Of a DNA stretch of 64,000 bases, positions 25,411 to 57,240 are shown piece by piece (the first letter of the stretch is position 1; each line of letters opens with the position of its first letter). The DNA is taken from assembly GCA_963422375.2 (NCBI GenBank), contig CAXXKD010000001.1, positions 352,001 through 416,000 on the forward strand. The letters are read 5' to 3'. Below the pieces are notes generated by a model that was given only the letters and a program-made list of their open reading frames with translations, ran no database searches and had not been told where the DNA came from. The DNA comes from Bryobacterales bacterium. Its GTDB lineage: Bacteria > Acidobacteriota > Terriglobia > Bryobacterales > UBA6623. The position numbers and the translations under genes were made by a program.

Positions 25411-26947
25411 GGGAATTATATATCTGAGTGCCGACAACGCCATGTCCGACTAGAACTGCTGTGAGCGGGGAGGTCGGCGTCGAGCTCGGGTCATTCGAGT
25501 GCGGCCGCGGTGGGCACGGAAGGGTGGGCACGGAAGGGTGGGCTCGTATTGGAATCGAACCTGCCAGCGGAATGGACGAGGCACGGATTGGAGAGGCCCC
25601 CTCGCATGCTCCGGTGGAACCCGGTTTGCGGTGGAGGGGCACCTCTTGCAAGCCGATTGCGTGCCCTCCGAGTGCCGAAGGCAGCGGATCCCCGGCGCTC
25701 GACGGTCTGCATCGACGGTCCGGGCCGGACTCGGGTCGAGCCGGGGGATTCCGGATCCGGTGCGCCCCTCGCACCGAGCGCGCACCGAGCGCGAAGAGAG
25801 CGCCCGGAGCGGGCCGCCGCGCTCGGCTCGGCGGGCGCCGCTCAGGCCGCGACCGCGGCCTGGCCGGTCAGCTGCCGGTAGGTCAGCGTCCGGCCGGCCA
25901 GGCCCCGCGCCATGCGCCGCATCCGTTCCGCCGTTGTTCCGCCGTGTCGCAGTCGCGGTCGTTGTAACGTCCCGCGAACTCCGTGAGGTAGCGGCCGAGA
26001 TGACGGACGCTCATCCGGTGATAGGTTCCGTACAGGCCGCGCTTGAACAGGGACCAAAACGATTCGATGCCGTTCGTATGCGCCGCCCCGCGCACGTACT
26101 CGCCGCCGGAGTGCCTGACGGCTTCGTGCGCGAACTCCGCCATGCCGGCGCAGGCCGCCGCCTCGTCGGAGCGGACCTGCGCCCCCGGCGCGACGCGGGC
26201 GCGCACGAAGCCCTGCAGGTCGCCCTTGGCGGTGCCCGGCAGCGGCCGCGCGGCCGCTGCGTTCGTGGCGCGGTCCCGCGCCCCCGCCACCGGGGTCTTG
26301 CCGACGGGCCCGCGCCCGGCGCGGGCCTTCTTCCTCTCGTGCTTATTGCGTTCCTTGCCGCCGACGTAGGTCTCGTCCACCTCCGCCGGGCCGGCGAACA
26401 GGCCCTGATCGCGCTCCCGGCACGCGCGGATGCGGTGCGCGAGGTGCCAGGCCGACTTCCGGCTGACGCCTAGGTCGCGGTGCAGCTTCATGCTCGAGAC
26501 GCCCTTGATGCCGGTAGTCAGCAGGAACAGGGCGACGGCCCGGGTGCGGTAGCCGAGCTCGGTGTCGGCCGTCACGCTGCCGGTGCGCACCGAAAAGCGC
26601 TTGCCGCAGCCGCGGCAACGGTACGGCATCGAAGGGTGGGCCGCGCCGGACTGCACGCTGGAGCGGCGGCAGTGGGGGCACGCGGGACCGTCCGGCCAGC
26701 GCATGGAGGCGAACCACTTTTCCGCGGATTCGTCATCGGGGAACATGGCGATCACTTCAATCAGAGTGATGCCTTTACGAAACCACTTCCCGGGGCCTTT
26801 CTGCTTCATAGACGACCTCATATATTGGAACTATTCTATCAAAATACTCCACCAAATGTCAACAGATTTCCGGAAGAAATATGAAATTAATTTATGGACT
26901 GATAATTTGCAAAATCGGTTGACTCAGCACTCAGATATATAATTCCC
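25411..26947 (-). mobile_element. IS1595 family, ISNwi1-like subgroup (copy A)
   Basis: Terminal inverted repeats GGGAATTATATATCTGAGTGC at both ends; flanks differ (ATTCAATA vs TATCAAAA), so no target duplication. Confidence 0.92.
25842..26821 (-). pseudogene. IS1595 transposase, C-terminal frameshift
   Basis: Zn ribbon CPHC/CRGC, EVDETY, HTNGIESFW; a short tandem duplication near 25924-25945 shifts the frame. Confidence 0.88.
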
Positions 26948-27226
26948 TATCAAAAAAATCAAGGTGTTCCCAAGAACGCCAAAGTTGCATTCATGTGGAT
27001 GCACAGGGCCGTACAGCAGGGGCTCGCCATAGCGCAGAATCATCTCGCGTTCATGTATTTCAGCGGTCAGGGAGTAGCCGAAGACTACACCTTCGCCTTG
27101 GCTTGGTGGAACTTCGCTTCCGCAAAGGGCAACGAGCAAGCAAGATTCGCCAAGGAGGCCCTTCGCAAGATCATGACTGCCGCGCAGATCGCGGAGGCTC
27201 AAGTACTGAGTCGTGAGCTAGAGTAG
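26948..27226 (+). pseudogene. Sel1-like repeat protein, 3' fragment truncated by the IS
   Basis: In frame from the IS end: YQKNQGVPKNAKVAFMWMHRAVQQGLAIAQNHLAFMYFSGQGVAEDYTFALAWWNFA...MTAAQIAEAQ. Confidence 0.85.
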
Positions 27227-27260
27227 CGGGGAGAGTTGGAATAGCCCGCATTCCCGTGGC

Positions 27261-28490
27261 TCACGGCTGCGACGTCCTTCCGGCCGGTGTGGGATTCGAG
27301 TCGGGCGTTCCGAGCAGGATTCGCTGGTCCTTCTCCCGCCGTTGCGACTGCAGCCGCCGATACTCGGTTAGCTGCTGCTTCTGAGCGGCCGAGTTGCCGG
27401 TCGCGCGGTGGGCGCGGGCCAGCTGGTAGCGCGAGCCGGGGTCCGTCGGATTCTGTTCGACAGCCTGCTCGAGATGGCCGGTCGCCTCGGCGGGGCGGTC
27501 CATGTCCAGCAGCAGCCTCCCCAGCGCCAGCCTGGCCTCGGTCAGACCGGGGCGCAGGCGCACGGCGCGCTGCAAGTAGCCGAGAGCTGTCTCGTATTCC
27601 GTCTTCGCGTAGTGGATCGCGCCGGCGCGGTGGGCGGCCGCAGCGTGCGTCGGGTTCGTCGACAGCTCCAGCTCGAATTGTTCCAAGGCGTCGTCCGCGC
27701 CGGCGGGGGCGTCGGCCAGCGCCAGCATCGCCTCGCCGAGCCGGAACCGCAGCCCGGGCCGCCTGGGATCCTTTGCCAGCGCCTTGCTGTATTCCATGAC
27801 GGCTAGGTCGTAGTACTGGCGGCTCTCGTACGATTCGCCCATCGCCTGATGCCCCCAAACGGACTCCGGGGCCACCCGTGCGAGGTCGAAAGCTGCCTTG
27901 ACGGCCACCTCGCGATAGGTGCGGTTCGCGTGAAAGAGGATCTCCGGATCGTCGGGATGTGCGATCTGCAGCTCGGCCGTCACCTTCGCGGCCTGCGCAT
28001 GCTTGTGCAGGCCGAGATAGCTCCGAATAAGCTCGAGACCCGCAAGCCGCTTCACGCCCTCGTGGTCCGGCGGGTCCGCGTAGCCTTCCTCGAGCTCCGG
28101 CAGCGCCTCGCGGAAACGGCCCAGCTCGGAAAGGCAGATGGCCAGCAGCACCCGCGCCGCCTTCAGGGCCGGGCGCAGCTCCAGCGCCCTCTGGAAGGAC
28201 GGGGCGGAGCGGTCGCACTGGCGGTCGAAGAAGTAACTCAGTCCGATCTTCGCATGCAGCTCCGCGCTGTCGGTGAGGGACCGGGCCAGCAGCGAGTATC
28301 GTTCCGCGGCCGCCTCGTAGCGCTGCTCGGCGAAGGCCTGCTCGGCGGCGCGGAACTGGCTCAGCTGCTCGTCGCTGAGGGTGGGCTGCGCTAGCGCCGC
28401 CCACGCGGATGCGGCAACGAAAAGGCCTCGGGCTCCCAGCGGGAGCCCGAGGCGTCGCCCGAGTGCTGCGAATTGCCTGCCGCCGGTCAA
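27261..28490 (-). CDS. Secreted TPR protein
   Basis: Signal-like N-terminus and multiple TPRs (ARLALGRLL, RYQLARAHRATGN); overlaps the TonB receptor stop by 4 bp. Confidence 0.85.
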   Translation of the reverse strand: MTGGRQFAALGRRLGLPLGARGLFVAASAWAALAQPTLSDEQLSQFRAAEQAFAEQRYEAAAERYSLLARSLTDSAELHAKIGLSYFFDRQCDRSAPSFQRALELRPALKAARVLLAICLSELGRFREALPELEEGYADPPDHEGVKRLAGLELIRSYLGLHKHAQAAKVTAELQIAHPDDPEILFHANRTYREVAVKAAFDLARVAPESVWGHQAMGESYESRQYYDLAVMEYSKALAKDPRRPGLRFRLGEAMLALADAPAGADDALEQFELELSTNPTHAAAAHRAGAIHYAKTEYETALGYLQRAVRLRPGLTEARLALGRLLLDMDRPAEATGHLEQAVEQNPTDPGSRYQLARAHRATGNSAAQKQQLTEYRRLQSQRREKDQRILLGTPDSNPTPAGRTSQP

Positions 28491-31400
28491 AACTCGAATC
28501 GCAGCGAGGCCTGCATCACACGCGGACCGCGCGCCGAAGTGACGCGACCGAAGTTGCCGTTGATTTGCGCTCCTGACGCGTCGAACCGCGCTGAGTTATC
28601 GACGCCGCTGTACTGCGTGTGATTGAACATGTTGTAGGCCTCCATCGCGATCCGGAAGCGCGTTCGCTCGGTGACCGGGAAGTGCTTGTAGACCGTGATG
28701 TCCCAGCTGTTCAGCCCGGGTCCCCTGAAGACGTCGCGCGGCGCGTTGCCGAAGTCCCCGAAGCCCGGGCCGGCCACGGACTCGGTGTTAAACCAGCGGT
28801 CGAACGACTTGTTGGAGATGATTGGGTTGGCCAACATGTTCGCCCTCGGGGAGTCGCCTCCGCCCCAGCGGTCCACCCCGTCGGTGTAGCTGAACCCTAC
28901 GCCGCTCGGGAAGCCGCTGGCCATGGTGATAATGCCTGCGATCTCCCAGTCGTGGAAGACGGCCCGCCCGGCAGCGCTATTCGCGAACGCGTTCGCGTTG
29001 GGTACGGTCCACAGGTAGTTCAGGACCAGCATGTGGGTCTGGTCGAAGTCCAGCTTGCCGTAGAGGTACTCCCGTGCTCCTCGGAACTGGGGCAGCGAGT
29101 CCCTGTCGTGGTCGCCGAGGCCCATGGACTTCGACCAGGTGTAGGCCACGCCGTACTGGAAGTTGGACGTGTAGCGGCGATTCAGGCTAACCTGCAACGC
29201 GTTGTAGTTCGAATAGCTGGAATTCTCTTGGTAGTTGATCCCTTGGTAGCCGCGGAAAGGCCGCAGGAACGCAATCGGCAGCACGCCGCCCGTCGTTGGA
29301 TCCTTGCTGGTGTCGAGGAAGCGAGTCCCGGGCGCCAGCGAGTTGATCTCGCGCGCCGCGTACAGCCGCCTGCCGCTGTTGCCGACGTAGCTCACGTCGA
29401 GCACGGTCCCGCCTCCTATGTCCTGCTGCACGCCGAAGCTCCACTGGTAGACCAGCGGCGGCTTGAATTCTGGCTGGAAGGCCTTGACGCTCGGAGGGAA
29501 CAGCGCCTGCCCCGCGTTGAGAAACGTATCCATGTTCCCGAAGTAGATGTTCGGCGACTCGAGGATCGGCGGGGAGGTGGTGACGGTCCACATCGAGCCC
29601 TGCGCTCCCATGATTGCCTGGGACTGCACTGCGAGGGACGCGCGGACAGCCGTCTTGCCCTTTCCGAACGGGTCGTAGGCGAAGCCGAGGCGCGGCTGGG
29701 GCTGGATGGCAGGGCGCTCGCGGTACCCGTGGAGGTAGTCGTCCTCGCCGTCGCCGATGATCAGTCCGTTCAGGCGCTCGCCCTGGCCGGGAATCGTCGC
29801 TCCGATGTACGGCGTCGGGAACAGCTTGCGGGTGAACGGGTCGATCGCCACGCGGTTGCCGCCGGTGTCTCGGTACGGGAAGTACATGAAGGGCGCCGTG
29901 CCGGGCTGGTAGCGGCTGACGGCGAACGCCGAGCCTTCGTTCTCGCGCAGCCTCCATGGCGTGAACGAGGAGAACCGGATGCCGACATCGAGCGTGAGCT
30001 TGGGAGTCACTTTCCATGTGTCTTGGGCGAACCATTCGATGGAGTACGACCTCGCCAGCCCCTCGGTCTGCCCGCTCGACTCCGCGTACGAGTAGAAGTC
30101 ACCCATCAGGGCGGTCGCGAACGGGTGATTCGAATCGTACGGATTCAAGTTGCTGCGCCGGAAGTCGTAGGTGCCCATGTGACCCGGGTCGCTGGACCTC
30201 GGCCCCTCGCTGGCGTCGTTCAGCTCGTAGTAGAAGCCGAACTTGATGGTGTGGTCTCCCTTGAACCAGCTGATGTTGTTCGACAGCACCACGCGCTCGT
30301 CGTGCGCCGCGATCGGCGTGCGACGGTCGTAGTCGACCTGCGGCCCGTTCGGAATGCCGCCGAAGGACATGCGCGGCACTAGGTTCAGCGGGTTCGCAGA
30401 CGGGAAGAGCTGGCCGAGTTCGGACAGGCCGGGATAGTTGTCCTTGCGCAGGTCTTCGAGCTGGAAGTCGTCGTTCAGCGCGCCGGACTCGCGGCTCAGG
30501 CCGAGGCCGAGGCGGAATTCGTTCACCAGCGTCGGCGACAGCGTCTTGTTGTAGATGCCCTGCAGGTTCTTGTTGATGTACTCGTAGTGGTGGGCCTGCT
30601 TGAAGATGCTGTCGTTGAAGGCGTTGAACGCGACGGACTCGCGCTGGGCCTGGATGTCGGCGTTCCAGAATCGCGGGCGGAAGGTGATGCGGTCGTTCGG
30701 CGTCGGCACGTAGTCGACCTTGAACTGCCACTGGCCCTTCGGGTGCGCCGACGGAGATAGCTCGGTGTAGTTGATGCCTTGCGAGGAGTAGAGACCCTGG
30801 TCCGTGGGATTCGGCATGAAGTTCAGGATCCCCTGTCCGGCGGCATGGATCCGCTGGGGCGGGATCTTGTTGTTCGGGAAGGGGTTGCCGGTCATGTGGT
30901 CGACGACCGCGATCAAGGCGCCGTCTTGCTCGACCGATTGGGAGAAGTCGCCCTGCCGCTCCAGCGAGGTGGGCACCGTGGCCTTGTGGCGGCGGCTGGG
31001 CTTCTGGATTCTCCAGTCCTCCCGGCTGACGAAGAAGAACGCCTTGTCCTTCTTGATGGGGCCGCCGAGCACTCCTCCGAAGGTGTCGAAGCGGTACGGG
31101 GGCTTGTCGGCGCCGTAGCGGTTGTTGTCGAACGAGTTCGCGTTGAGCGCCTCGTTGCGCTTGAACCAGTAGCCGGACCCGTGAAATTCGTTCGTCCCCG
31201 ACTTGGAGATGATGTTGACCTGCGCGCCCGGGACGCGGCCGTACTCGGCTTGGTACGCGGTTGACTTGACGCTCACCTCTTGGATGGCGTCCATGCTGAC
31301 CGACACGTGGAACGTGGTGGTGTCGTCGATGTCGTTGCCCGGCATGCCGTCCAGCATGAAGTTGTTCCAGCCGTTGCGCGCTCCCGAGAAGTTGGGCGTG

Positions 31401-31933
31401 CGAGAGCCCCAGTTCCCGCCCAGGGCGTCGCTGTTGGCGACTTGGGCAACGCCGGGAAGCACGGTCAGCAGGGCCACGATGTCGCGCCCGCGCTGCATCA
31501 GCCCGTCCATCTGGTTGCTCGTCAGCAGGGCGTTGACGCCTGCGGTGTCGGTTTCCACCGCGGCGCCCTCGGCCTCGACCGTGACCGTCTCGGTGACCGC
31601 GCCGATGGAGAGCTGGATGGTGCCGAGCGCGAGCGCCTGGTCCGCGCTGATGATGATGCCCGTCTGCTCGTAGGACTGGAATCCCTCGGACTGCACGCTG
31701 ATCGAGTAGGTGGCCGGCGGAAGCGCCGGCACCACGAAGTTGCCTGCCTCGTTCGATTGGACAGATCTCTGCTCGGATGTGCCGGTATTGGTGACAGTGA
31801 CGTCGGCGGCGACGATCACCTGTCCGGTCGGGTCCGCGACAGTGCCCGACAAGCGGCCCGACACCTGGGCCCAGCCGTTGCCCGCGACGAGCAGTAGGCC
31901 TAGCACGGTGAGGGCCGAGAATCGCAAGTTCAT
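28487..31933 (-). CDS. Oar-like TonB-dependent receptor (intact)
   Basis: Signal peptide, carboxypeptidase-regulatory domain, KSGTNEFHGS, terminal PRVMQASLRFEF; RBS GGAGG. Confidence 0.95.
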   Translation of the reverse strand: MNLRFSALTVLGLLLVAGNGWAQVSGRLSGTVADPTGQVIVAADVTVTNTGTSEQRSVQSNEAGNFVVPALPPATYSISVQSEGFQSYEQTGIIISADQALALGTIQLSIGAVTETVTVEAEGAAVETDTAGVNALLTSNQMDGLMQRGRDIVALLTVLPGVAQVANSDALGGNWGSRTPNFSGARNGWNNFMLDGMPGNDIDDTTTFHVSVSMDAIQEVSVKSTAYQAEYGRVPGAQVNIISKSGTNEFHGSGYWFKRNEALNANSFDNNRYGADKPPYRFDTFGGVLGGPIKKDKAFFFVSREDWRIQKPSRRHKATVPTSLERQGDFSQSVEQDGALIAVVDHMTGNPFPNNKIPPQRIHAAGQGILNFMPNPTDQGLYSSQGINYTELSPSAHPKGQWQFKVDYVPTPNDRITFRPRFWNADIQAQRESVAFNAFNDSIFKQAHHYEYINKNLQGIYNKTLSPTLVNEFRLGLGLSRESGALNDDFQLEDLRKDNYPGLSELGQLFPSANPLNLVPRMSFGGIPNGPQVDYDRRTPIAAHDERVVLSNNISWFKGDHTIKFGFYYELNDASEGPRSSDPGHMGTYDFRRSNLNPYDSNHPFATALMGDFYSYAESSGQTEGLARSYSIEWFAQDTWKVTPKLTLDVGIRFSSFTPWRLRENEGSAFAVSRYQPGTAPFMYFPYRDTGGNRVAIDPFTRKLFPTPYIGATIPGQGERLNGLIIGDGEDDYLHGYRERPAIQPQPRLGFAYDPFGKGKTAVRASLAVQSQAIMGAQGSMWTVTTSPPILESPNIYFGNMDTFLNAGQALFPPSVKAFQPEFKPPLVYQWSFGVQQDIGGGTVLDVSYVGNSGRRLYAAREINSLAPGTRFLDTSKDPTTGGVLPIAFLRPFRGYQGINYQENSSYSNYNALQVSLNRRYTSNFQYGVAYTWSKSMGLGDHDRDSLPQFRGAREYLYGKLDFDQTHMLVLNYLWTVPNANAFANSAAGRAVFHDWEIAGIITMASGFPSGVGFSYTDGVDRWGGGDSPRANMLANPIISNKSFDRWFNTESVAGPGFGDFGNAPRDVFRGPGLNSWDITVYKHFPVTERTRFRIAMEAYNMFNHTQYSGVDNSARFDASGAQINGNFGRVTSARGPRVMQASLRFEF

Positions 31934-32145
31934 GATTTCCTCCCAGCAGGGATCCCTGCTGACGGTTCCGTGGAATGGCTCGTTCGTGCCCCCGGAGAAC
32001 TGATGGGGAACGGAACCCGATGAACTTGCCCTACTGCTCTACCGCAGCCCCCGGTACCCGCCATCCGAGATGCCGAGAGCAGCGGTGCATCAATGCGTCC
32101 CTCCGGCAGTGGCTGTCGGCCACCTACGCCATGCTGAGCGCCTAT

Positions 32146-32174
32146 ACCCTACACACTGCCTCGAGCCCTGTCAA
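32146..32174 (-). promoter_or_regulatory. Sigma70-like promoter for the TonB receptor, implying a ~200-nt leader
   Basis: TTGACA-N17-TAGGGT. Confidence 0.5.
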
Positions 32175-32523
32175 GCGTCCGGCCCGCGCGGCCATGCGCG
32201 AGTGCAACCTCATGCGGAGGCTTCGGCCCGGAGCGCCGGGCAGGCCGCCGGGAGCAGGTACGCGCCTCGTTCCCGCGACCCCACGCTCCTCGAAGCGCTG
32301 GTGGTCGGAGGCACGATACCGGCCTGCGGATCCGAAGACGGCCGCGGGGGCGTCTCGGTGCCGAGCATGGTTCGCTTCCAGCCGGCGGCTCGGTCTTGCG
32401 ACGGCTGCTGCGGCAGGAATTGCCGGAGTTGTCGCTCGGGAGCCGATGATTCTAGTTTGGCTGCCGCATCATTGCCGCAGGATTGCGCGGGGCGAGGGGC
32501 CTCGCCATAATGGGGCGACTCAT

Positions 32524-39977: not shown

Positions 39978-40259
39978 GGCGAGGTCATTCTACCCTAGGG
40001 TCCTACTTGGTGCATGTCCATTGGCAGGCCGGCGGCGCGCAGGCTTCGAGTAGGTCCAGGGCGCTGCGACGGTCGCTGACCGCCGCGGGCAAGCGATGTT
40101 TCCGATGGCAGAATCCGAACGCAGGACCTACCGGTTCGACGCCTGCGAGAGGGCCGCTGCCGTGCCGGTTGCGAGCGAGCACGGTACGTCCGCCTCTGTG
40201 CCGTGCGAGAGCTTGGCTACGGGACGGGCGAATTGGGGTGGGGGGCAACGTGAGCGCGA

Positions 40260-41539: not shown

Positions 41540-42429
41540 TCACCTCCCGTTGAGCCGGGCCAGCAGGGCGTCCGCGGATTCGCCGGACACGATCGCCACG
41601 CAGGCGTCGTCCAGTGCGCTCGGATCCGAGATCGACGCCGGCGCCCTCCTAATCGCTTCGGCTACCGAGTGCCCGAAGCGCGTCTCAACGATTCGCACTA
41701 GCAGGCTCCGCTTGTCCTCCACCGCCTCCTGCCGGGCCTCCCGCCGTCCCTTGTCGACGCCCTCCGCGAGCGCCTTGTCCCTGATGTGCTCTCCCCATTC
41801 CTTGAATCCCCTGAACTCCTCCCGGGCTCAACGCGCCTCAGGCTCGTGGCCACATCCGTCGCGAGCGCCCAGGCCCGCTGCGGATCCCGGTTCCAGCTGA
41901 ACCGCAGCAGCGCTGCCGCGCTGTTGACCGCCAGTTCCGGGCGGTTCACATCCACCTCCCCGCTGGCCACAAGCTCGTACGTCATCGAAGGCAGCCGCCG
42001 CGCCCCTTCCGCGGGCGGGCAAACCAGCCCGCCCAAGTCCCGGGCAGGGCCCCACGCCCCGTCGCCACTGTAGATCATGCACGAATGCACCAAGGGCAGG
42101 GCCGAGCCGTTGATGCGCTTCTCCGCCAGCAGGCCGTTGTACAGCCCCACCTGGCAGGTGACCATGCGCAGCGCCATCAGCGAGTCGGCCTCGGACTGGA
42201 ACTCAACGTGCAGGAAGACGCGGGGCCTGCCCTTGCGGCGGGACTCGACGCTCCACAGCCGGTCGCTCTCGCGCTGCCGCAGTTCCGCCGTGACGCGCCG
42301 GGTCTCCTCGAGCTGCAGCGTGGTGAGGTCGAGTCCCTCCACCCACGGCTCCGGCACGAAGCCCCGCAGGAAGTCGGCCACGATCCCCCGGTGCGAGAAG
42401 CAGAGCTTGAAGAAGGAGTCGTTGACCAT
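41540..42429 (-). pseudogene. Rpn family (YhgA-like PD-(D/E)XK) nuclease, frameshifted
   Basis: NDSFFKLCFSH, LDLTTL, RESDRLWSV, FLHVEFQS and MALRM. A 1-bp deletion near 41827 separates the typical C-terminus (EGVDKGRREARQE...LLVRIVETRFG). Confidence 0.85.
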
Positions 42430-42727
42430 GTGCGCCGTGCTACGACTCACTTCTCGGCGGCTCGACGGCCCGCCACCGCCTGGACCGAGGCCGGCCTCCG
42501 TAGTCGGGGGGCGCTCTGTCCGTCCCGTCGGCCCTAACGCGGTGTGCGGGGGAGAGACTGCAGCCATCGCAAGAGGAATAATGTTGTGTTCTTTCAGGAT
42601 GAAACGACTCCATCATTTAGAATAAATTTGGTACATACTGAGCCTTTTGCAAAATTCAGAAAAGAGGGCTGACCGCCCCATGAACGACTAGTTTCCGGGC
42701 TGTTATTCTCGCCGAAAAAGACTCCCT

Positions 42728-43998
42728 TCAGCTGGGCTTGCTCGGCTGCGGGGCGCTCCTGCGGGGATCGGCCCCGTGCAGGCGCAGCTGTCCCGGCCCG
42801 GCCCTGCGGGCGGGCGCTCTTCGCGGCTGTCCCGGCGGCCCGGGCTCTCGGAGCGCCAGGCGCAGGAGCTGCGCGACCGTCAGCGCGAGCACGCCGAACA
42901 GGAGGTGGCACAGCACCTTGCCGTGGCCACCTTGCCGTGGCCGCGGACGCGCACGTGGCGCCCGCCGCAATCGTCCTTCAGGCGGCCGTTGACACGCTCC
43001 ACCGTCGAGCGCTCGCGGTAGCGCAGCTTGGCGGGATCCGCCCGCCCGGCGCTGCGCAGCGCCTTGGCCTCCCGTGCCAGATCCGCCTGCAGCTCCGTCC
43101 GGCCGCGCGGGTTGACAGCGATGAGCGGCACGTGCCCGAGCCGCTTGCTGAAGGCCCGGATCCCGGCCGCGTCGTACGCGCTGTCCATCCGGTCGTACAG
43201 GTTGTCGACGCGGCCCGCGGTCCGTGTCGCCAGCGGGATCGCGGCCTGGCTGTCGTGCAGCGAAGCCGCGGTGAGCAGGCAGCTGACCGGGATCCCGCCG
43301 TCGATCGCGTCGATAGGCAGCTTGTAGCCGCGCCAGCTGACGGTACGGCCCTTGGCGTTGCGCTTGGTGCCGGTATCGCAGTCCTGCGGCAGGTCGTGCA
43401 GCATTGCTTCGAGATTCATGTCCGGCTGCCGCGCCAGTCGGCGCGGAGCGGGCGGCCGCTGCTCGCCCTTGCGAGGGCGCCCGCGCTTGCGTTTCGGCTG
43501 GGGTTCCGGCGCGGGCTTCGCGGCGGGCCGCTCGCGGCCCTCGATGGCGGTCGAATCGCGGGAGACGCGCCCTGCCAAGCGGCCGTCGAGCGTCCGCGCG
43601 AGCAGCGCCTCGTGCAAGCGTCCGGGCAGTTCGCCGACGGCGAACTCGGCGCAGGAGCGCGAGAAGGTTGCCTCGCCGGGCACGGCCCCGGCCAGGTCCC
43701 AGCCGCACAGTCGGCGCAGGGTGCGATCGGTCTGCAGGCGCTCGACCGGCGAGCGCGTAGTGGGCTGGTCGAAGACGGCCTTGGCGATGCAGGCGCGCGC
43801 CATGGCGGCGCGGCTTGCGCGGGGGCGGCCGCGGCCGCCCTGCCCGACGGGCAGGCAGTCCTCGACCTGCGCCAGTTCCACCGCTTGAACGAAGCTGCGG
43901 CAGCGCTCGCCGAGGGGGCCGAGTTCCTGCTCGAGCCAGGGGAACAGCCCCTGCTGGAACGTGAACCAGTACGCGGATACGGTTTCTATCAAGGACAT
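42728..43998 (-). pseudogene. IS5/IS1182-like DDE transposase, degenerate
   Basis: LRRLCGW, SRDSTAI, WRGYKL, SLHDSQ, MDSAYD and RSTVERVN; a 14-bp tandem duplication ACCTTGCCGTGGCC (42915-42942) frameshifts the tail. Confidence 0.85.
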
Positions 43999-44171
43999 AT
44001 TCGTTGAATCCTGCCAGCTGTTTACTAGGCTTGCATTACAATAATAGCACGGATGGCAAGGGATTGCCAGGAAACTCAAAACGCATGACAAGCCATTAAA
44101 ACTACATTTACTACAGTTCTATTCCATTGATTATATCGAATACTTAATAGACTAACTAAATGATAATTCTA

Positions 44172-45204
44172 CCTGATTACCAACGAATGTCAGCCGAGGA
44201 TATGCTATACTGGAGGAGGTCGGAAACCTCTGACAGGAAAGGGGATAGCTGATGAAACGCAATCGCGTGCAATTCCAGAAGGGACTCAGCCTGGGCAAGT
44301 TCCTGCAGCGCTACGGCAGCGAGGGGCCATGCGAGCAGGCCGTCTTCAAGGCCCGCTGGCCGGACGGCTTCCGCTGCCCGGAGTGCGGCTCCCGGCGGCA
44401 CTGCCGCATCCGCTCCCGCAAGCTCCGGCAGTGCCATGCCTGCCACCGCCGGACCTCCCTCGTCGCCGGCACGATCTTCGCCGCCACCAAGCTGCCGCTG
44501 ACCGTTTGGTTCCTGGCGCTCCACCTGCTGACGCAGGGCAAGCACGGCGTTTCGTCGCTGGAACTGGCGCGGCAGCCGGGGGTCAGCCGGAATACCGCCT
44601 GGAAGATGAAGCACAAGCTCTTGCAAATGATGAAGGAGCGCGACGAGCGCCTGCCGCTGGCCGGCATCGTGCAGGTGGACGACGCCTGCTGGGGCGGGGA
44701 GCGGAGCGGCGGCAAGCGCGGTCGCGGCGCGGCGGGCAAGACGCCGTTCGTGGCCGCCGTGCAGGTCACCGCCGCCGGCCAGCCGGCAAGGATGCGTATG
44801 AGCAGCGTGGCGGGCTTGCGCAAGAAGACGCTGGCAGCGTGGGCCGGGCGGCACTTGCAGCCCGGCACGAAGGTGCATTCCGACGGCCCGGCCTGCTTCC
44901 GGGGCGTGGCCGACGCCGGCTGCGAGCACGTGCCGACCGTCACCGGAGGCGGGAAGCGGAGCTGCGGGGATTCCCGCTTCGTCCGGGTCAACACGATGCT
45001 GGGGAACGTCAAGCAGTCCCTGGCGGGAACCTGCCATGCGCTCGACGGCAAGCACCTGCCGCGGTACCTCGCCGAGTTCCGCTACCGCTTCAACCGCCGC
45101 TACGATCCGGAGGCGCTGGTCCCCCGCCTGCTCCACGCCTCCGTGCGCACCCCGCCCAGGCCTTACCGCCTCCTAACCTTGGCTGCGTCTTGTGGGTAAT
45201 CAGG
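44172..45204 (+). mobile_element. IS1595 family, IS1595 subgroup (copy C); transposase ORF 44252-45199
   Basis: Ends CCTGATTACC ... GGTAATCAGG with a perfect 8-bp target duplication TAATTCTA; RWPDGFRCPEC, VQVDDA, KHLPRYLAEF. Confidence 0.95.
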
Positions 45205-45269
45205 TAATTCTATGAGCTCGGGATTTTTGCAAAAGGCTCAACTGCAACTGTTTTCAGGCGGTAGGTGCT

Positions 45270-46939
45270 ATGGAATCCATGGTCGCAGCCGCAGGCTCCC
45301 AAGGCGTTCCGTGCCGCAATCCGCCCCGTCGCCGTCCGCTTCGATCACGAGCGCAGCAGCTCCGACGGCGGCGCTGTCCCGGTCGAGGCCGCCGACCGCG
45401 CTCCCGGCCTCACCGCGGCGTTCGCCGACTGCCTGCGCGACCGGCGCCAGCCCTCCGAGGGGCTCCACTCCCTGGCCGACAGGCTCCGCCAGCGCATCTA
45501 CGGCCTCGCCTGCGGCTAGGAGGACTGCAACGACGCCGGGCGCCTTGGCGGCGACCCCGTGTTCAAGCTGCCGCTCGGGGGCGACCCCTTGCAGGGCCGC
45601 GACCTGCCGTCCCGGCCCACCCTGTCGCGCTTCGAGAACGCCGTCACCGCGGACGCGCCGAGCGCGATGTCCGCGGTGCCGGCCCGCTGCGTCCTCCGGT
45701 GTCAGCGCGAGCAGCGCCCCGAGACGAGCATCGTCGAGCTGGACTTCGACCCGCCGCACGGGCACCGGCAGCTGGCGCTGTTCAACAGCTTCTGCGACAC
45801 GCATTGCTACTTGCCGCTGGTGGGCGCGGTGCGCCGCGACGCCGAGCGCCAGCGGCATCTCGTGGCGGCGCTGCCGCGCTCGGGCACGGCCGCGGACCGC
45901 TTGCTGCCGCTGCTGCGGGAATTCTTCCCGCGGGTGACGCTGCGCCTGCGCTTGGATGCGGGCTTCCAAGGGGACGAGCTGCTGGCCATGGCGAGCGCGA
46001 GGGCCTGGAGTACGTGGTGTGCCTGCAGAAGAACGCGGTGCCGGAGCGGCGCGCGGCCCCGTTGCGGGCGGCCGTCGAGGCCCGGCGCCCGCCCGGCGGC
46101 ACCCCGGGCGCGGACCCGGGTGGGGAAGCGGCGGCTGCGGGGGACCCGCCGTCCCGCCCGGAGCAGTTGCGAGCGAAGTACCCGCGGCTGGGAGCCCGCA
46201 CCTAAGGGGGCCGGCCGGACGCGGCGGCCCGGGCCCGCTGAACGGGCAGTTCGTCTACCGGGCGGGCCGCCGGTCGCGGTCGCGGCGCGTGATCGTCAAG
46301 GCGGACGTAAGCGAGTTTCCCGGGCGCGTCCCGAAGTGGTGACCAACGAGGGCGGCCGCCTGCAGCGCCTGTACGAGCGGACCTACCGTCTGCGGGGGGA
46401 CGTGAAGAACCGCGTCAAGGAGCTCAAGCAAGGGATGCGGATGGGCCGCGTCGCCTGCTCGAGCTTCGCGGCGAACCAGTTCCGCGCACCGCTCGCGGCG
46501 TCGGCCTACGCGATCATGCAGGAACTGCGCTGGCAGGCGCGGGAGACGCCACTACGGAAGCGCCAGGTGGACGGGTTGCGCCTCAGCCTGCCGAAGCCGG
46601 GGGGCGGGTCGCGGCCACGGCGGAGCGGATCGTGCTGCACGTGCCGCGGATGACACCGTTCCGGGACGCCTGGGTGGTGGCACGGGGCTTGGGGGCCGTG
46701 CCGATATGACGCCGGGCCGGGTCAATCGGGAGAGTGCGTCGGCAGGCGCTGGGCGCCGCCGGGGGAAACCGTGCCTGTCTCCCGGGCGGGCACCGCCGCC
46801 GAGGTGCCCGAGGCCCGCACGCCGCTCGCGAGACGCCCCACATTTCCCGCCCGCAGGTGATTCGGAAGCAGATTCGGCGGCCATCGAGAGCCCGGAAACC
46901 GGATCCATGAGCCTGCGCCGCATTCATGAATAATGCGGG
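45270..46939 (+). mobile_element. IS1380 family element, degenerate transposase (45270-46709)
   Basis: SSDGG, RQRIYGLACG*EDCND, PTLSRFEN, RLDAGF and YRLRGDVKNRVKELK; several frameshifts; candidate right end ATTCATGAATAATGCGGG. Confidence 0.85.
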
Positions 46940-47971: not shown

Positions 47972-48005
47972 GCGGCGGGAGGATTGCCTGCTATAGTTCG
48001 GTGGC

Positions 48006-50648: not shown

Positions 50649-52489
50649 GCGCTCGAGTCCGTCTGGCCAGGAGTGTCCTGATGGGACTAAACCGGCCCGG
50701 CCGGTGCGGGGCCCGCTGGGCGGTCCTGCTGCTCGCCTGCTGCGGGGCCCGAGCCCAAGAGACGCTCCCGGACCCGAGCGCGGATCTGGGTGACATCTAT
50801 TGCACGGCGACGGCAACCGTGCCCCTCGTGCGGCTCGAGGGCACGAGCGAGCTGGTGGGCGACATTCTGCTTACCTGCTACAACTCCGGCGCGGTTACCG
50901 CGGTTACTAGGCCTTTCTCGAGCGGGTTTCTGGAAGCGGATGTGAGGCTCTCGCTGAATGTGGCTGTCGGCAACCGCGTGGGCACCGGAGGGGCACTGGC
51001 AGACGCGGTCCTCGTCGTCAACGGCAAGGACTGCCCTGCGTCCGGCGCGGCGCGCACCTTCGCCTCGTGCGGCCATGCCGACAGGACAGTCCAGGATCCG
51101 ATGCTGGCGTACCGGGACTCCTCGCAGCGCGGCACCCTGACTTGGCGCGGAGTCGCGATTCCGATCCCCGGTGCGCCGACGGGTGCCGACGGAGGCCGTG
51201 CGGCGCCGGTGGCGGACTGCTCCGGACGGTACGGGCTTCCGGGCGGATGTCACCCCCGCGCGACCACCATCCGCCTGACCAACATTCGTGCCAACGCCTC
51301 CGAGCTGGGTGCTAGCGGCGAGCCGACCGCGGTGGCTATCCCGATCGAGGCTTCGCTGGATGTGGCCGCTCCGGGCGCGACGGTGCGGATCGAAGGCGGC
51401 CTCCTGCGGGTAGCGGAAGCCGCTGCGGGGCTGAAGGCTGGAGTGCGCTCCCCGGTGCCCGAGCGCCTCTGCTCCCATGGCGAGACAGTCTCCGAAGTCG
51501 CCGTTTCCGAGGGATTCGCCACCGCCTTCAAGACAAGGGGAGTTGCCTCGGACCGGCCAGGTGACCCGGGCTGGGACGAGGCCTTCTACCGCCTCGCCGC
51601 GGACGGCTTCGATCCCGACGCCGGGCTGGCTGGCACGCGGATCCGCGTCGCGCTGGCCGGCCTTCCGGCGGGGGTGTCAGTCTTCGCGCCGACCCGCGTC
51701 GCATGTGCGCCCGACGGACTGCCCGGTACGCTGGAGCTGCGGTTAGTCGAGGGCGCTTCCGCCAGCGGGCTCGGCGGGTCGCTTGCCGGCAGCGCCGGAG
51801 GCGAGCGGTCCATGCTCGCGAGCGAGGACTTCGGGGCGCGGGCCGTGTACGAGGTCACGCAGGCCGACCCGCTGGTCCGGGAGGAATGCAGCATTCCCAT
51901 CCGCTTCGAGCGAACAGACCTCAATGCAAGGGCGGCCTTCGGCAGCAGAGTAGTCCTGTCCGTCGGCCTCGCCCCGGCCGGGCCGCCATCGCCTGGAGGT
52001 CGCGGGGACTACGGGCAGCGTTTCGTCAACGTCAACCGGCGAGGCCGACCGCGGATTGACCTTGTCGACTGCGGCACGACTCTGTTTTTCCCCTTCGTTA
52101 CAAGCCGCACTAACTTCGACACCGGGGTCGTGATAGCGAACACTTCGGCCGACCCGCTTGGTACCAGGCACGAGTCCGGCCAGTGCATCCTGCGCTACCA
52201 CGGCTCGCGGCAGTCCGGCCAGCCGGTCGAGCCGTCCATCCAGAGGTCGGCTTCTGTGCAGCCCGGCAAGCAGCTGGCCTTCACTGTCTCAAGCGGCAGC
52301 CCGGCTAACGGTCTCGCGCCCTTGGCAGGCTTCCAGGGCTACTTGGTCGCCGAGTGCGAGTTCCGGCACGCGCACGGATTCGCGTTCGTGACCGAGCAGG
52401 TCAACGGCGCTGCCATCTTGGCCCAGGGCTATCTCGCCGAGATCGTGCACGGGGAGGCCAGCGCAGGGGCGTCCGCTGGGCCTCCCTAG
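50645..52489 (+). CDS. Secreted Cys-containing beta-rich protein, paralog 2
   Basis: VRLEGTSELVGDILLTC, IRLTNIRANASEL, CGTTLFFPFVT, FQGYLVAEC and QGYLA; GTGA overlap with paralog 1. Confidence 0.78.
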   Translation: MSARVRLARSVLMGLNRPGRCGARWAVLLLACCGARAQETLPDPSADLGDIYCTATATVPLVRLEGTSELVGDILLTCYNSGAVTAVTRPFSSGFLEADVRLSLNVAVGNRVGTGGALADAVLVVNGKDCPASGAARTFASCGHADRTVQDPMLAYRDSSQRGTLTWRGVAIPIPGAPTGADGGRAAPVADCSGRYGLPGGCHPRATTIRLTNIRANASELGASGEPTAVAIPIEASLDVAAPGATVRIEGGLLRVAEAAAGLKAGVRSPVPERLCSHGETVSEVAVSEGFATAFKTRGVASDRPGDPGWDEAFYRLAADGFDPDAGLAGTRIRVALAGLPAGVSVFAPTRVACAPDGLPGTLELRLVEGASASGLGGSLAGSAGGERSMLASEDFGARAVYEVTQADPLVREECSIPIRFERTDLNARAAFGSRVVLSVGLAPAGPPSPGGRGDYGQRFVNVNRRGRPRIDLVDCGTTLFFPFVTSRTNFDTGVVIANTSADPLGTRHESGQCILRYHGSRQSGQPVEPSIQRSASVQPGKQLAFTVSSGSPANGLAPLAGFQGYLVAECEFRHAHGFAFVTEQVNGAAILAQGYLAEIVHGEASAGASAGPP

Positions 52490-52539
52490 GTGTCGGTAGG
52501 GAATTGGCGCTTGCTAGATTGGTTAGGGGAGAGTTAGGA

Positions 52540-53562
52540 GTGCCTTCAGAATCGGGGCGGGACCAAGCATCGCAGGGGGCGGACGTCCGCGAAATCGGCC
52601 GGCGGGTCGAGTCCGAGGCGGCCGTGCTGGCCGCGGTGCGTCGCGAGATCGGACGGATCATCGTCGGACAGGAAGCGCTGGTCGACGGACTCATTCTCGC
52701 TCTGCTTTGCAACAATCACGTGCTCATCGAGGGCGTGCCGGGTCTTGCGAAGACGCTGTCCGTGACGACGCTCGCCGGGGCGATCCGAGCCTCGTTCCGG
52801 CGAATCCAGTTCACGCCCGACCTGCTACCGGCCGACCTGATCGGCACGATGATCTACTCCCCGCGGGACGGAGGCTTCAGCACCAAGAAGGGCCCGATCT
52901 TCGCCAATGTCGTGCTGGCCGACGAGATCAACCGCGCCCCGGCTAAGGTGCAGAGCGCCCTGCTCGAGGCCATGCAGGAGCGACAGGTGACGATCGGGGA
53001 AGAGACCTATGCGCTTGACGATCCATTCCTAGTGCTCGCCACGCAGAATCCGATCGAGCAGGAAGGCACCTATCCGCTGCCGGAAGCGCAGGTCGACAGA
53101 TTCATGTTCAAGCTGCGCGTGGGCTACCCGACGCGGGCACAGGAACTCGAGATCCTCCGACGCATGGCGCGAACTCGAGTGGAGCACGAAGTCGCCCCGG
53201 TTCTCGCCCCGGCCGACATCGTGCGGCTGCGGCAGCTGGCTGACTCGGTCTACATGGACGCGAAGATCGAGGAGTATATCGTTGACCTAATCGAGGCGAC
53301 CCGGCGGCCCGAGGAATACAAGCTGGATATCGGCGAGTGGATTCGGCACGGCGCATCGCCCCGAGCCACGATCTATCTCGCCATGGCAGCGCGCGCTCGC
53401 TCGATGCTGCAAGGCCGGGGATTCGTGATCCCGCAAGATGTCAAGTCGGTGGCCCCGGACGTTCTACGGCACCGCGTCATGGTGACATACGAGGCGGAAG
53501 CGGAAGAACTCTCGCCCGAGGACATCGTGCAGCGGGTGCTGGACGGCGTTGAAGTCCCCTAG
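52540..53562 (+). CDS. moxR: MoxR family AAA+ ATPase
   Basis: [38 protein letters not shown] and [25 protein letters not shown] start at 52540. Confidence 0.95.
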
Positions 53563-54250
53563 CTAGTGCCCGGGACCGGCCCCCCATTTGGGCCGGAGTG
53601 GCGCGAATCGAGCATGTTCTCGGCACATGCGACCTATATTTTCAATATCTTCGTATTATACGCCGTGTTCCTTGTCGATTGTTGCGATTTCGCAAGGATC
53701 CTCGGAAGTCGCACGATGATACTTCAGCGAAGATAATCACGAATCCCGGCATTTCGGGCCGAATGACACGGGAATCTGGAATTCTTCGACCCGTAGTCTT
53801 GCCGACACCCACGGACGCGCAGTGGATAGTGCGGTCCATTGAGGTCACTGCATTGAGGAATACTAGAACATTAACAGAATAGACAAAATACCAATCAAGA
53901 ATCCACCCCATCTCCTGTTGCCTGCCCCAAGGTGAGTGGGTGTTGTTACAACCACTCGCTAGAGTCGTGCATCTCGTTGTGCGGCCGGCACCAGCCGGTC
54001 GGCGGGGCGACTCTCTCATGGAGAACCTCTGCCGTCATTGGGATCATCTTCGAGACGCCGTGGCGTTTGTCATACGTTCCGGAACGCGCCGAGTCGCCGG
54101 TCCACTTGCAAGGTTTGCGGCATCAGGGCAGGTAGGCTCGACTTGCTTGACCCTGTTGTGCCCAGCGGCAGAGTCATAGCCTTTCGTAAGGGAATTATAT
54201 ATCTGAGTTCCGAGGGAATCGAGTCGGCAAATTATCAAGCCATAATAAGA

Positions 54251-55292
54251 CCTGATTACCCACAAGACTCAGCCAAGGTTAGGAGGCGGTAAGGCATGGG
54301 CGGGGTGCGCACGGAGGCGTGGAGCAGGCGGGGGACCAGCGCCTGCAGGTCGTAGCGGCGGTTGAAGCGGTAGCGGAACTCGGCGAGGTACCGCGGCAGG
54401 TGCTTGCCGTCGAGCGCATGGCAGGTTCCCGCCAGGGACTGCTTGACGTGCGCCAGCAGCGTGTTGCTCCAGACGCAGCGGGAATCCCCGCAGCTCCGCT
54501 TCCCGCCTCCGGTGCCGGTCGGCACGTGCTCGCAGCCGGCGTCGGCCCCGCCCCGGAAGCAGGCCAAGCCGTCGGAATGCACCTCCGTGCCGGGCTGCAA
54601 GTGCCGCCCGGCCCACGCTGCCAGCGTCTTCTTGCGCAAGCCCGCCACGCTGGCCACGCTGCTCAGGCGCATCCTTGCCGGCTGGCCGTCGGCGGTGACC
54701 TGCACGGCGGCGACGAACGGCGTCTTGCCCGCCGCGCCGCGCCCGTGCTTGCCGCCGGTCCGCTCCCCGCCCCAGTAGGCATCGTCCACCTGCACGATGC
54801 CGCCCGGCGGCACGCGCTCGTCGCGCTCCTTCATCGCTTGCAGGAGCTTGTGCTTCACCTTCCAGGCCATGTTCCGGCTCACGCCCAGCTGCCGCGCCAG
54901 TTCCAGCGGCGAAACGCCGTGCTTGCCCTGCGTCAGCAGGTGGATCGCCAGGAACCAGACGGTCAGCGGCAGCTGGGTGGCGGCGAAGATCGTGCCGGCG
55001 ACGAGGGAGGTCTGGCGGTGGCAGGCATGGCACTGCCAGAGCTTGCGGGAGCGGATACGGCAGTGCCGTCGGGAGCCGCACTCCGGGCAGCGGAAGCCGT
55101 CCGGCCAGCGGGCGTTGAAGACGGCGTGCTCGCATGGCCCCTCGCTGCCGTAGTGCTGCAGGAACTTGCCCAGGCTGAGTCCCTTCTGGAATTGCACGCG
55201 ATTGCGTTTCAGCTGCTATCCCCTTTCCTATTAGAGATTTCCGACCTCCTCCAGTATAGCATATCCTCGTCTGGTGTTCGTTGGTAATCAGG
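54251..55292 (-). mobile_element. IS1595 subgroup element (copy D) nested in the left end of copy B
   Basis: Ends CCTGATTACC ... GGTAATCAGG; near-identical to copy C; start ATG changed to CTG (55210-55212); 9-bp duplication (SSVASVAG). Confidence 0.92.
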
Positions 55293-55324
55293 TAAATCAA
55301 TTTGATATTTATTCTGGATATCTG

Positions 55325-55354
55325 TTGACATTTGGTGGAGTATTTTGATAGAAT
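55325..55354 (+). promoter_or_regulatory. IS transposase promoter
   Basis: TTGACA-N18-TAGAAT, identical in copy A. Confidence 0.7.
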
Positions 55355-56671
55355 AGTTCCAATATATGAGGTCGTCTATGAAGCAGGAATGTCCCGGGAA
55401 GTGGTTTCGTAAAGGCATCACTCTGATTGAAGTGATCGCCATGTTCCGCGATGACGAATCCGCGGAAAAGTGGTTCGCCTCCATGCGCTGGCCCGACGGT
55501 CCGGTATGCCCCCACTGCCGCGGCTCCAGCGTGCAGTCCGGCACGGCCCACCCTTCGATGCCGTACCGTTGCCGCGGCTGCGGCAGGCGCTTTTCCGTGC
55601 GCACCGGCAGCGTGATGGCCGACACCAAGCTCGGCTACCGCACCTGGGCTGTCGCCCTGTTCCTGCTGACTACCGGCATCAAGGGCGTCTCAAGCATGAA
55701 GCTGTACCGCGACCTGGGCATCAGCCAGAAGTCGGCCTGGCACCTGGCGCACCGCATCCGCGCGTGCTGGGAGCGGCATCAGGGCCTGTTCGCCGGCCCG
55801 GTGGAGGTGGACGAGACCTACGTCGGCGGCAAGGAGCGCAACAAGCACGAGAGGAAGAAGGCCCGCGCCGGGCGCGGGCCCGTTGGCAAGACACCCGTGG
55901 CGGGGGCGCGGGACCGCGCCACGAACGCAGTGGCCGCGCGGCCGCTGCCGGGCACCGCCAAGGGCGACCTGCAGGGCTTCGTGCGCGCCCGCGTCGTGCC
56001 GGGCGCGCAGCTCCGCTCCGACGAGGCGGCGGCCTGCGCCGGCATGGAGGAGTTCCCGCACGAAGCCGTCAGGCACTCCCGCGGCGAGTACGTGCGCGGG
56101 GCAGCGCATACGAACGGCATCGAGTCGTTTTGGTCCCTGTTCAAGCGCGGCCTGTACGGAACCTATCACCGGATGAGCGTCCGTCATCTCGGCCGCTACC
56201 TGACGGAGTTCGCGGGACGGTGCAACGACCGCGACTGCGACACGGCGGAACAGATGCGGCGCATGGCGCGGGGCCTGGTCGGCCGGACGCTGACCTACCG
56301 GCAACTGGTCGGCAAGGCCGCAGTCGCGGCCGGAGCACGGTCTAGCCGGTCAGCTGCAGCCTCTCTTCACGCTCGGTGCGAAGGGCGCTCCGGATCCGGA
56401 ATCCCGCGCCGCGACCGGTGTCCGGCCTGGACTATTCATAGATGCAGCCGTCTTGGAAGGGGAGCCTCTCCACGGCAATCCGGGTTCCACCGGGGCGCCC
56501 GAGGCGGCCTCACTAGTCCGTGCGCCGCCAAATCCGCTTGCAGAATCGATTCAGATACGAACCGACCCTTCGGTGCCCACCTCGGCCGCACACGAAAGAC
56601 CCGAGCTAGACGCCGACGTCCCCAATCAGAGCAGTTCTAGCCGGATATGGCGTTGTCGGCACTCAGATATA

Positions 56672-56930
56672 TAGTGCTTGTGACAAAACCCCTGAATTCT
56701 GGCCCGATCAGCATTTCATACTACATCCTGAGGTCGGATGGATCTCCAAACACAACATATAGGGCCCAAGGTCGGAAGTTGCTCAGACGCCAATCGCGAA
56801 GATTTCCGCGCTCTACCCAGAATCGCCAGGATTTCGGATTAGTCGTAGCATTCCAGCGAAATCTTCGCCTTGAGAGATTGGACCTAACGCCTTTGTTGTC
56901 AAGGGGATACGAGTTTTGTCACGGGCACTA
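56672..56930. mobile_element. Non-autonomous MITE (~260 bp) inserted in the right inverted repeat of copy B
   Basis: Ends TAGTGCTTGTGACAAAAC ... GTTTTGTCACGGGCACTA within the TATATA of the host repeat; no transposase. Confidence 0.85.
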
Positions 56931-57240
56931 TATAATTCCCTTTCGTAACTAGCACCACTTCACGACTCACCCATGGACACATGAATGCGGCGTGTTCACT
57001 CGGAGGGCATGAAATCGGGCACGGGCGCGGCAGCGCTGGGTTGAGATCATGGGTGACGGAAGCGGGGACAGCACGTCAATCATTCTGACAGGCGGAGCGC
57101 CAGCCCCGGATTGCGATCCCAACAGCCATGCGGGCACTCCGGCCGCCTCACCCCGCGCAATGAAAACAGACGATAGAGCACGGGGCGACGGAGCCTGCGC
57201 GACACCGTGGGTGGCTGTGTTCGTTGGATCGAGCGCGGCC

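Follow-up and report, generated by a model that had tools for sequence, protein, structure and literature searches.

Probable GC-biased gene conversion among dispersed insertion sequence copies in the genome of a Bryobacterales bacterium

Our analysis concerns the decay of insertion sequence (IS) copies in a 64,000-nucleotide stretch of DNA from a Bryobacterales bacterium (the window; C3:352001-416000 of a 6.0-Mb genome in three contigs, with 67% GC and rated 96% complete). The window carries four IS1595 copies (A to D, belonging to the families AB and CD), an IS5/IS1182-like copy (E), and a frameshifted relic (F). New alleles enter these families as private changes of single copies, are shared among copies in one direction only, are confined to repeats, follow a sequence context that acts on their spread, and damage the transposases in common. 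Ectopic GC-biased gene conversion among the dispersed IS copies is the best reading of these data and, in our judgment, a probable one. A first-pass annotation had suggested that transposases are damaged by a repeat-directed, GC-biased process, for instance conversion with Vsr-like repair, and this core idea is supported by the restriction to repeats, the column-wise spread of alleles, and the presence of a vsr gene.

The direction of change was determined at codons with at least 75% agreement among at least six outgroups (transposases of congeners), and every nonsynonymous single-base opportunity was counted in 92 CD and 93 AB copies. The first 18 AB codons, where this family has two left-end subfamilies, bases within 4 positions of a gap, and copies with less than 70% or less than 85% coverage were left out. 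Changes from A/T to G/C segregated at 109 of 503 opportunities, with 43 alleles present in at least 10% of the copies and 34 singletons, while changes from G/C to A/T segregated at 77 of 770 opportunities, with 5 alleles at this frequency and 58 singletons. This difference (43/109 versus 5/77; Fisher p = 1.6e-7) was obtained with all five common G/C>A/T alleles kept in the counts, four of which, at 87 to 98%, look mispolarized (family-specific ancestral residues). Among the C>G changes (445 opportunities, 37 segregating, 17 singletons), 11 reached at least 10% (range, 16 to 78%), one or two of them possibly mispolarized. T>A changes (258 opportunities, 5 segregating, 4 singletons) yielded no common allele. 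Private alleles are led by C>T, with private G/C>A/T changes amounting to about 0.1% per opportunity in IS copies, and of the 98 opportunities for a stop codon, 4 are segregating, each in one or two copies. A near-full copy carries 7 to 22 of 33 shared changes in family CD (88 copies) and 5 to 15 of 21 in family AB (89 copies). In the IS5-like family, alleles present in at least two copies were found at 23/372 A/T>G/C versus 3/622 G/C>A/T opportunities (p = 7e-8). These two probabilities place the directional decay noticed in the first-pass annotation far beyond chance in both groups, and the L>P, H>R, and F>C drift that it had described for the IS5-like elements is common to up to 17 of 21 copies.

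The GC-ward process is confined to repeats, and single-copy DNA is unaffected. This restriction rests on three single-copy controls, namely, the TonB-dependent receptor pseudogene of the window, a second TonB-receptor pseudogene elsewhere in the genome, and a heavily decayed relic in the window (Table 1). The window pseudogene has 50 invariant CTGG sites, none with the T changed to C, and 131 invariant T[A/G]G sites, one with this change. The two pseudogenes together gave 1/193 for T[A/G]G and the third relic 0/19, hence 1/212, compared with 27% in an average IS copy. Nonsynonymous changes at invariant residues, pooled over the two pseudogenes and including some that predate gene death, occurred at 16/1541 (C>T), 13/1386 (T>C), 6/1449 (T>G), 4/2098 (C>A), 11/2166 (C>G), and 4/1447 (T>A) opportunities. 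These spectra are balanced (A/T>G/C, 19/2835, versus G/C>A/T, 20/3639), and the third relic shows C>T at 14/141 and T>C at 11/124 opportunities. An AT bias had been claimed for the window pseudogene, but the pooled counts do not bear it out, and its stop codons are attributable to ascertainment; the spectra of IS copies and single-copy pseudogenes do differ, and the actual contrast is that hot sites are missing from single-copy DNA. In unique DNA genome-wide, the observed/expected (O/E) ratio is 1.04 for CCGG (not enriched), 1.06 for CTGG (not depleted), and 0.66 for CCWGG (depleted). At synonymous positions before GG, T is not scarcer when a C precedes it than when another base does. The CCGG ratio makes a CCGG-specific Vsr insufficient, and T>G and C>G changes cannot arise from T:G repair.

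The shared alleles follow a context. Common T>C alleles occupy 22/44 T[A/G]G sites versus 8/201 sites in other contexts (p = 4e-13), with TAGG at 5/5, TGGG at 5/6, TGG[ACT] at 11/28, TCGG at 1/6, and TTGG at 0/1, and T>G changes favor a 5' T. In eight other families, the preference is weaker and broad (61/248 for TGG[ACT] and 39/223 for TNGG versus 285/2825). The enrichment of C/T polymorphism at YRG is significant in 4 of 10 families tested singly, with none in the families N5, M, and N3, and in the family of relic F such polymorphism is enriched before RG (28/309 versus 65/1376). Across nine families, shared alleles have an odds ratio of 3.0 for T[A/G]G and of 4.3 for T>G after T, whereas the preference among singletons (odds ratio, 1.3) is not significant. 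Since the context preference is seen in shared alleles and not in singletons, the bias acts on the spread of changes and not on their input. A wider TNGG motif was considered and set aside, as it holds in part (11/18 versus 19/227) yet TCGG and TTGG are weak in the polarized data, and no pyrimidine-run rule was found for C/G polymorphism (92/4053 versus 90/4217).

Family CD shows no tree structure, and its linkage (r2) falls from 0.22 within 5 bp to 0.04 to 0.06 at 6 to 20 bp and to 0.015 to 0.019 beyond 40 bp; family AB keeps longer linkage because of its subfamilies. Rare alleles are co-shared within 15 bp by unrelated copies in excess of expectation (CD, 4 versus 0.9, p = 0.005; AB, 4 versus 1.4, p = 0.04). 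In 15 sister pairs, picked for low distance, differences accumulate at common polymorphic columns, with 55 over 88 such columns versus 14 over 927 others in CD and 93 over 93 versus 35 over 757 in AB. Insertion sites differ in the three sister pairs checked, and lopsided pairs have gains of 8:1, 1:7, and 2:7 that are spread over 1 kb. Nearby copies are no more alike than distant ones in CD, and in AB rho is -0.10 and the distance classes have the same mean. A toy simulation produced no common alleles when conversion was left out and symmetry when it was unbiased; a large number of common A/T>G/C alleles beside rare G/C>A/T alleles resulted only when conversion was biased. From these site, linkage, sister-copy, and simulation data, we infer a contagious, near single-base transfer with biased resolution.

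The IS1595 families of three congeners (G008, G015, and G042) agree in direction. Their samples consist of the best-scoring copies (38 of at least 72 matches in G008, 30 of 127 in G042, and 10 of 20 in G015), and for G008 a 2-copy group and a 9-copy group that mixes subfamilies were left out. In the young G008 family (0.6% divergence among 27 sampled copies), the shared changes are M>R in 9/27, Y>D in 5/27, and V>L in 7/27 copies as well as synonymous A>C changes in 12/27 and 8/27; its singletons are led by C>T (11) and T>G (9), and four gametes occur at 31 of 66 column pairs. Within this element, C>T-class alleles are found in at most 3/27 copies and T>G-class alleles in up to 12/27. G015 and one G042 family have K>Q and M>L or M>T in 2 to 8 of 10 copies, this G042 family also has N>H within 2 to 8 of 10 sampled copies, and a second G042 family consists chiefly of two subfamilies. 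From these partial samples, the process looks genus-wide with differing spectra. As a separate observation, a Tyr codon has become TAG by C>G in 6 of 10 sampled copies of one G042 IS1595 family (L130-L139).

Considering these data, we propose the following course of events. Ordinary mutation, mildly led by C>T, seeds private alleles in single copies. A/T>G/C and some C>G alleles then reach 10 to 99% of a family, base by base and nearly without linkage, with G/C>A/T alleles staying private; this much is seen in the data. To bring it about, IS copies would pair by homology, RecA being present, and form heteroduplex, in which mismatches would be resolved toward G:C in very short patches. A Vsr-type endonuclease would be suited to turn T:G into C:G in T[A/G]G, and MutY to turn A:G into C:G or A:C into G:C, while most other mismatches would be rejected or restored by MutS/MutL. 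C:C and other pyrimidine mispairs escape MutS, and the GC-neutral spread of C>G could be an escape from repair or a further bias. In this scheme, transposase damage would be a by-product, perhaps amounting to a contagious erosion of high-copy elements that resembles fungal repeat-induced point mutation (RIP). A more general idea is put forward tentatively, as possible rather than probable: a strong conversion drive, specific for the type of mismatch, would act nearly base by base on the dispersed repeats of these bacteria, remove G/C>A/T alleles, and carry A/T>G/C and some C>G alleles through entire IS families. It would be stronger with copy number, genus-wide, and a prokaryotic functional counterpart of RIP made up of recombination and short-patch repair.

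Genes for such a process are predicted in the genome. A vsr gene (TIGR00632, 154.1 bits versus a cutoff of 97.85) is also found in all five congeners searched, recA is an open frame, mutS (878 amino acids) and mutL (631 amino acids, over the TIGR00585 cutoff) are long open frames, and endonuclease III and a family-4 uracil glycosylase score over their cutoffs. Of the genes that the first-pass annotation had pointed to, vsr, mutS, mutL, and C5-methyltransferases (18 matches) are thus present, while nucS, like uvdE, was not found in this 96% complete genome. The vsr gene (L001:1285-1722, in a 90% cluster of 34 members), in the region of C2:2578614, lies among unrelated genes, and no frame beside it was recognized as a methyltransferase. 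Three of the C5-methyltransferase matches (C1:1834233, C2:1339756, and C3:16926) have equal scores and open frames of 408 amino acids, and two of these have a broken second methyltransferase adjacent. GTGCAC has an O/E of 0.19 and CTAGG of 1.3 in unique DNA genome-wide; the depletion of GTGCAC and CCWGG, with CTAGG at 1.3, suggests long-standing restriction/methylation footprints that are not offset by Vsr.

Several points weigh against biased conversion as we propose it. No conversion event was observed directly, and the mutY-like frame, in the region of C2:826560, falls just below its family cutoff (279.4 versus 286.5). Vsr of Escherichia coli acts in the context CTWGG, compared with T[A/G]G broadly here, as far as the text of PMC2715241 describes it. 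In the three lopsided sister pairs, no single present-day copy could have donated all gains (6/8, 8/9, and 6/7). The evidence for tracts is modest: the co-sharing of rare alleles has p = 0.055 (CD) and p = 0.095 (AB) at a stricter cutoff, and pairs with two rare alleles in common are about as many as expected under the null. The T>G drive differs between two families of one genome (12/145 in CD versus 1/113 in AB; p = 0.008). GC-neutral C>G alleles, including four F>L changes, are common, which would not be expected from plain GC-biased conversion, and are so more often per site than in the unbiased simulation; the simulation also predicts too few singletons in both classes. Among the relatives, a T>C drive is not evident in the G008 sample, although vsr is present there, and the G042 and G015 samples retain long-range linkage (r2, 0.25 to 0.35).

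Some of these points would be met by homology-triggered de novo mutagenesis, wherein the pairing of repeats would allow some enzyme to introduce new T>C, T>G, and C>G changes without a donor, as a prokaryotic, GC-ward counterpart of RIP. Such a process would be restricted to repeats, would have a context preference, and would produce lopsided sister pairs with gains spread over 1 kb and no full single donor; recurrent change would likewise give the homoplasy pattern, i.e., the decay of linkage, the four-gamete pairs, and the co-shared rare alleles. If bases were written anew, however, like contexts should change at like rates, and the sites are instead bimodal, with a column-specific derived base: of the 44 T[A/G]G sites, 18 keep the ancestral base in every copy, 22 have a derived base in 10 to 99% of the copies, and there are no singletons, while at a uniform rate the probability of 0 of 90 is 3e-13. 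Moreover, the shared load of a copy, the variance of which is about twice the independent expectation, does not rise with its private load (rho, -0.04 and 0.03), three chemically unlike changes would need several enzymes, and short synonymous haplotypes are shuffled across backgrounds. We consider this mechanism unlikely.

Unbiased recombination combined with history, in which a past GC-ward mutator phase or GC-shifted, damaged founders were spread in trans and shuffled, is in our view quite unlikely. It would fit the recent duplication of damaged copies at new sites, the left-end subfamilies and longer linkage of AB, the family-specific spectra, and the partly tree-like samples of G042 and G015. 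In the simulation, however, unbiased conversion made G/C>A/T and A/T>G/C alleles equally common, the old single-copy relics show no GC-ward phase of this context, and the young G008 family is already asymmetric in its two allele classes.

Alternatively, wide motifs, methylation, or secondary structure may create sequence-intrinsic hot spots that are hit independently and become visible because IS DNA is unconstrained. Clear context preferences, nearly independent columns, and the number of C5-methyltransferase matches would agree with this. Yet single-copy pseudogenes, with decay at least equal, do not show the effect, and identical 7-mer contexts mostly disagree: among 136 site pairs, 10 were both hot and 38 had one hot member, the derived base sometimes being different. 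Local direct-repeat or inverted (quasi-palindrome) templates showed no excess (5.85 versus 5.71 nucleotides; p = 0.33), and singletons are without context bias. Intrinsic hot spots, already largely refuted, are decidedly improbable as the cause.

An artifact of assembly or polishing, through base-calling errors at methylated motifs or reads of other copies being mixed in, is very improbable. While polishing does fail in repeat copies, it cannot create a direction, motif-linked errors would strike single-copy genes as well, and the congeners share the direction. Three short-read runs (three samples of one study) showed no difference over about 10 kb of single-copy DNA between window positions 40000 and 54200, and the sampled population looks clonal. 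A short-read contig of single-copy depth matched relic F at 46059-46270 without a difference over 212 bp, although the family majority differs there at several places. This comparison covered single-copy DNA and the piece of relic F, with no listed piece inside copy C. Lastly, a genome-wide GC-ward mutator without a role for repeats (loss of mismatch repair, which the first-pass annotation had offered as one branch, loss of mutT, or an overactive Vsr) would go with a genome of this GC content, an excess of T>G over C>A in singletons and pseudogenes, and a mutT-like protein below its family cutoff (76.1 versus 97.9), but is scarcely credible. The balanced single-copy spectra refute it as the sole cause, the mutS and mutL frames are open, unique DNA is without CTGG depletion and CCGG enrichment, and synonymous T between C and GG is not in short supply.

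Bacterial GC-biased gene conversion (gBGC) was proposed by Lassalle et al. 2015 from a correlation of GC content and recombination across strains, with MutS/MutL being invoked (PMC4450053). As presented there, gBGC resembles our case in that a transmission bias toward G/C mimics selection and can fix harmful alleles and in the common A/T>G/C skew. It is, however, allelic and acts across strains, whereas here paralogous IS copies of one genome are affected in a near single-base, context-dependent manner that includes C>G; the main text of PMC4450053 does not contain the words paralog, MutY, or VSP. Two marks of gBGC are found in our data, namely, A/T>G/C alleles at higher frequency and confinement to DNA that has a recombination partner.

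In Wolbachia, gene conversion has reportedly occurred among IS copies. Going by the title of that report (Cordaux 2009), the likeness lies in ectopic conversion among dispersed, nonfunctional copies; there, conversion maintains the elements, whereas here it would spread damaging G/C alleles among copies that are 4 to 6% apart.

Vsr acts on heteroduplex in phage crosses. In E. coli, it repairs T:G in the CTWGG context (PMC2715241). By that account, the conversion of T:G to C:G in a short context is shared with our case, where a vsr gene is present, although Vsr repair cannot account for the transversions.

In Helicobacter pylori, MutY is modeled to excise the A of G:A and C:A mispairs when heteroduplex forms in recombination, and short-patch resolution (mean, 82 bp) lowers linkage, with short interspersions linked to MutY (PMC2582958); UvrC-dependent microimports have a mean of 28 bp (PMC9426483). 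The resolution of heteroduplex in short patches that lower linkage is the common feature, as far as the accessible text of both papers goes. The imports of H. pylori are allelic, however, in a species described as mismatch repair deficient, while this genome keeps mutS and mutL, and the accessible text of the two papers claims no GC drive among repeats.

Fungal RIP is restricted to repeats and context dependent and ruins transposons by de novo, AT-ward C>T changes. Confinement to repeats, dependence on context, and damage to transposons are found here as well. In our families, by contrast, C>T stays private and the change is GC-ward with transversions included, alleles look copied (18 of 44 preferred sites are untouched, and identical 7-mers disagree), and stop codons are avoided. 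By the features compared, the process is neither classical very short patch (VSP) repair nor RIP. No title or abstract opening that our searches listed describes GC-biased conversion between IS copies in bacteria; the searches lay outside most subscription journals and supplements.

Bacterial gBGC and its enzymes have been debated mostly from cross-strain correlations, to judge from the account in PMC4450053. One closed-quality genome with about 90 paralogues per family would allow the bias to be read per allele and per mismatch type, with single-copy controls adjacent, and would offer concrete candidate substrates for Vsr and MutY. If our reading is true, the fastest-expanding elements are ruined, expansions of ISs have a route to their own extinction that needs neither stop codons nor deletions, and there is a within-genome readout of a force that raises bacterial GC content. 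The majority consensus of such families would then be damaged rather than ancestral, and the divergence between copies would overstate their age.

Repeats with at least five copies take up about 9% of the genome. Family AB has 126 genome matches (89 near-full), family CD has 104 (87 to 88 near-full), and the IS5-like family has 22 (18 to 19 near-full), with a mean divergence between copies of 4.4% for CD and 6.5% for AB. Such values are unusual next to the similarity of more than 99.7% cited for E. coli IS families in PMC3205602. Copies B and C, taken as IS1595 representatives, contain the PF12760 zinc ribbon and PF12762 (DDE_Tnp_IS1595), both over the cutoff. For relic F, the IS1380 label comes from the first-pass annotation only, as does the hsdM label of the control relic at 12760..13330; the frames tried for either gave no Pfam match. 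Relic F has no usable outgroups; its matches in congeners are short and limited to 3 of the 30 genomes.

Table 1. Coordinates of the features analyzed (window positions unless a contig is named)
Feature	Position	Strand	Remarks
TonB-dependent receptor pseudogene, single-copy	7381..10750	+	Negative control; five congeners at 80-83% nucleotide identity
Heavily decayed single-copy relic	12760..13330	-	Second window control; five congeners at ~66%
IS1595 copy A	25411..26950	-	Family AB; transposase frame 25883-26821; blastn versus genome, inverted-repeat pairing with copy B
IS5/IS1182-like copy E	42640..44171	-	Pfam DDE_Tnp_1 and DUF772
IS1595 copy C	44163..45205	+	Family CD; Pfam DDE_Tnp_IS1595 and Zn_ribbon_IS1595; contains six named CCGG sites
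Derived changes in copy C	44451; 44577; 44889; 44984; 45108		Q>R; L>P; Leu codon to Pro; W>R; L>P (outgroup polarized)
IS relic F, frameshifted	45215..46935	+	Family of 27 genome matches
IS1595 copy D	54241..55300	-	Family CD; inserted in left end of copy B
IS1595 copy B	54182..56960	+	Family AB; transposase frame 55378-56289; interrupted by copy D and 259-bp repeat 56672-56930
Second TonB-receptor pseudogene, single-copy	C2:1972385-1974997		Four stop codons; aligned to eight congeners

The first-pass annotation had described the drift as TG/CA to CG, often creating CCGG. The six CCGG motifs that it named in copy C lie where it placed them, its coordinates being motif starts, and five of them are derived T>C or A>G changes when polarized by outgroups (Table 1). 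At the sixth site, 44426 (family column 257), W and R occur at 60:34, and the outgroups have T in 11 of 14 rows. Copy C has 17 listed changes, including 8 T>C, 3 T>G, and 1 C>G, with CCGG created by 5; copy D has 21, including 7 T>G, 4 C>G, and 3 T>C; and the polarized changes of copy A are 10 T>C and 1 C>G, with CCGG created by 1 of 11. CCGG is not the main product, however, as it results from 9 of 56 polarized changes in the four window copies and from 13 of 54 common derived alleles genome-wide, and TG/CA to CG is too narrow a description, since A>C/T>G and C>G transversions make up a large share of the drift. A uniform CTGG>CCGG rule was rejected, with many CTGG sites changed in 0 to 2% of about 95 copies and others in 35 to 99%. 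The M>T, V>A, I>V, and Y>C changes that had been listed are borne out by polarization in copy A, while the K/E difference is a polymorphic column of the CD family.

A few further observations concern the surroundings of these elements. The 259-bp repeat in the right end of copy B lies at a TATA stretch and has 74 genome matches and 51% GC. At 41698-46935, the three unlike IS relics E, C, and F abut beside a YhgA-like transposase gene. A tRNA-Asn gene at 11452-11526 precedes a low-GC, decayed stretch, and two genes, one methylase-like with DUF1156 and one with HSDR_N, are found at the right end of the window (57735-61930), to which a stretch at C3:418-420 kb is paralogous (87%).

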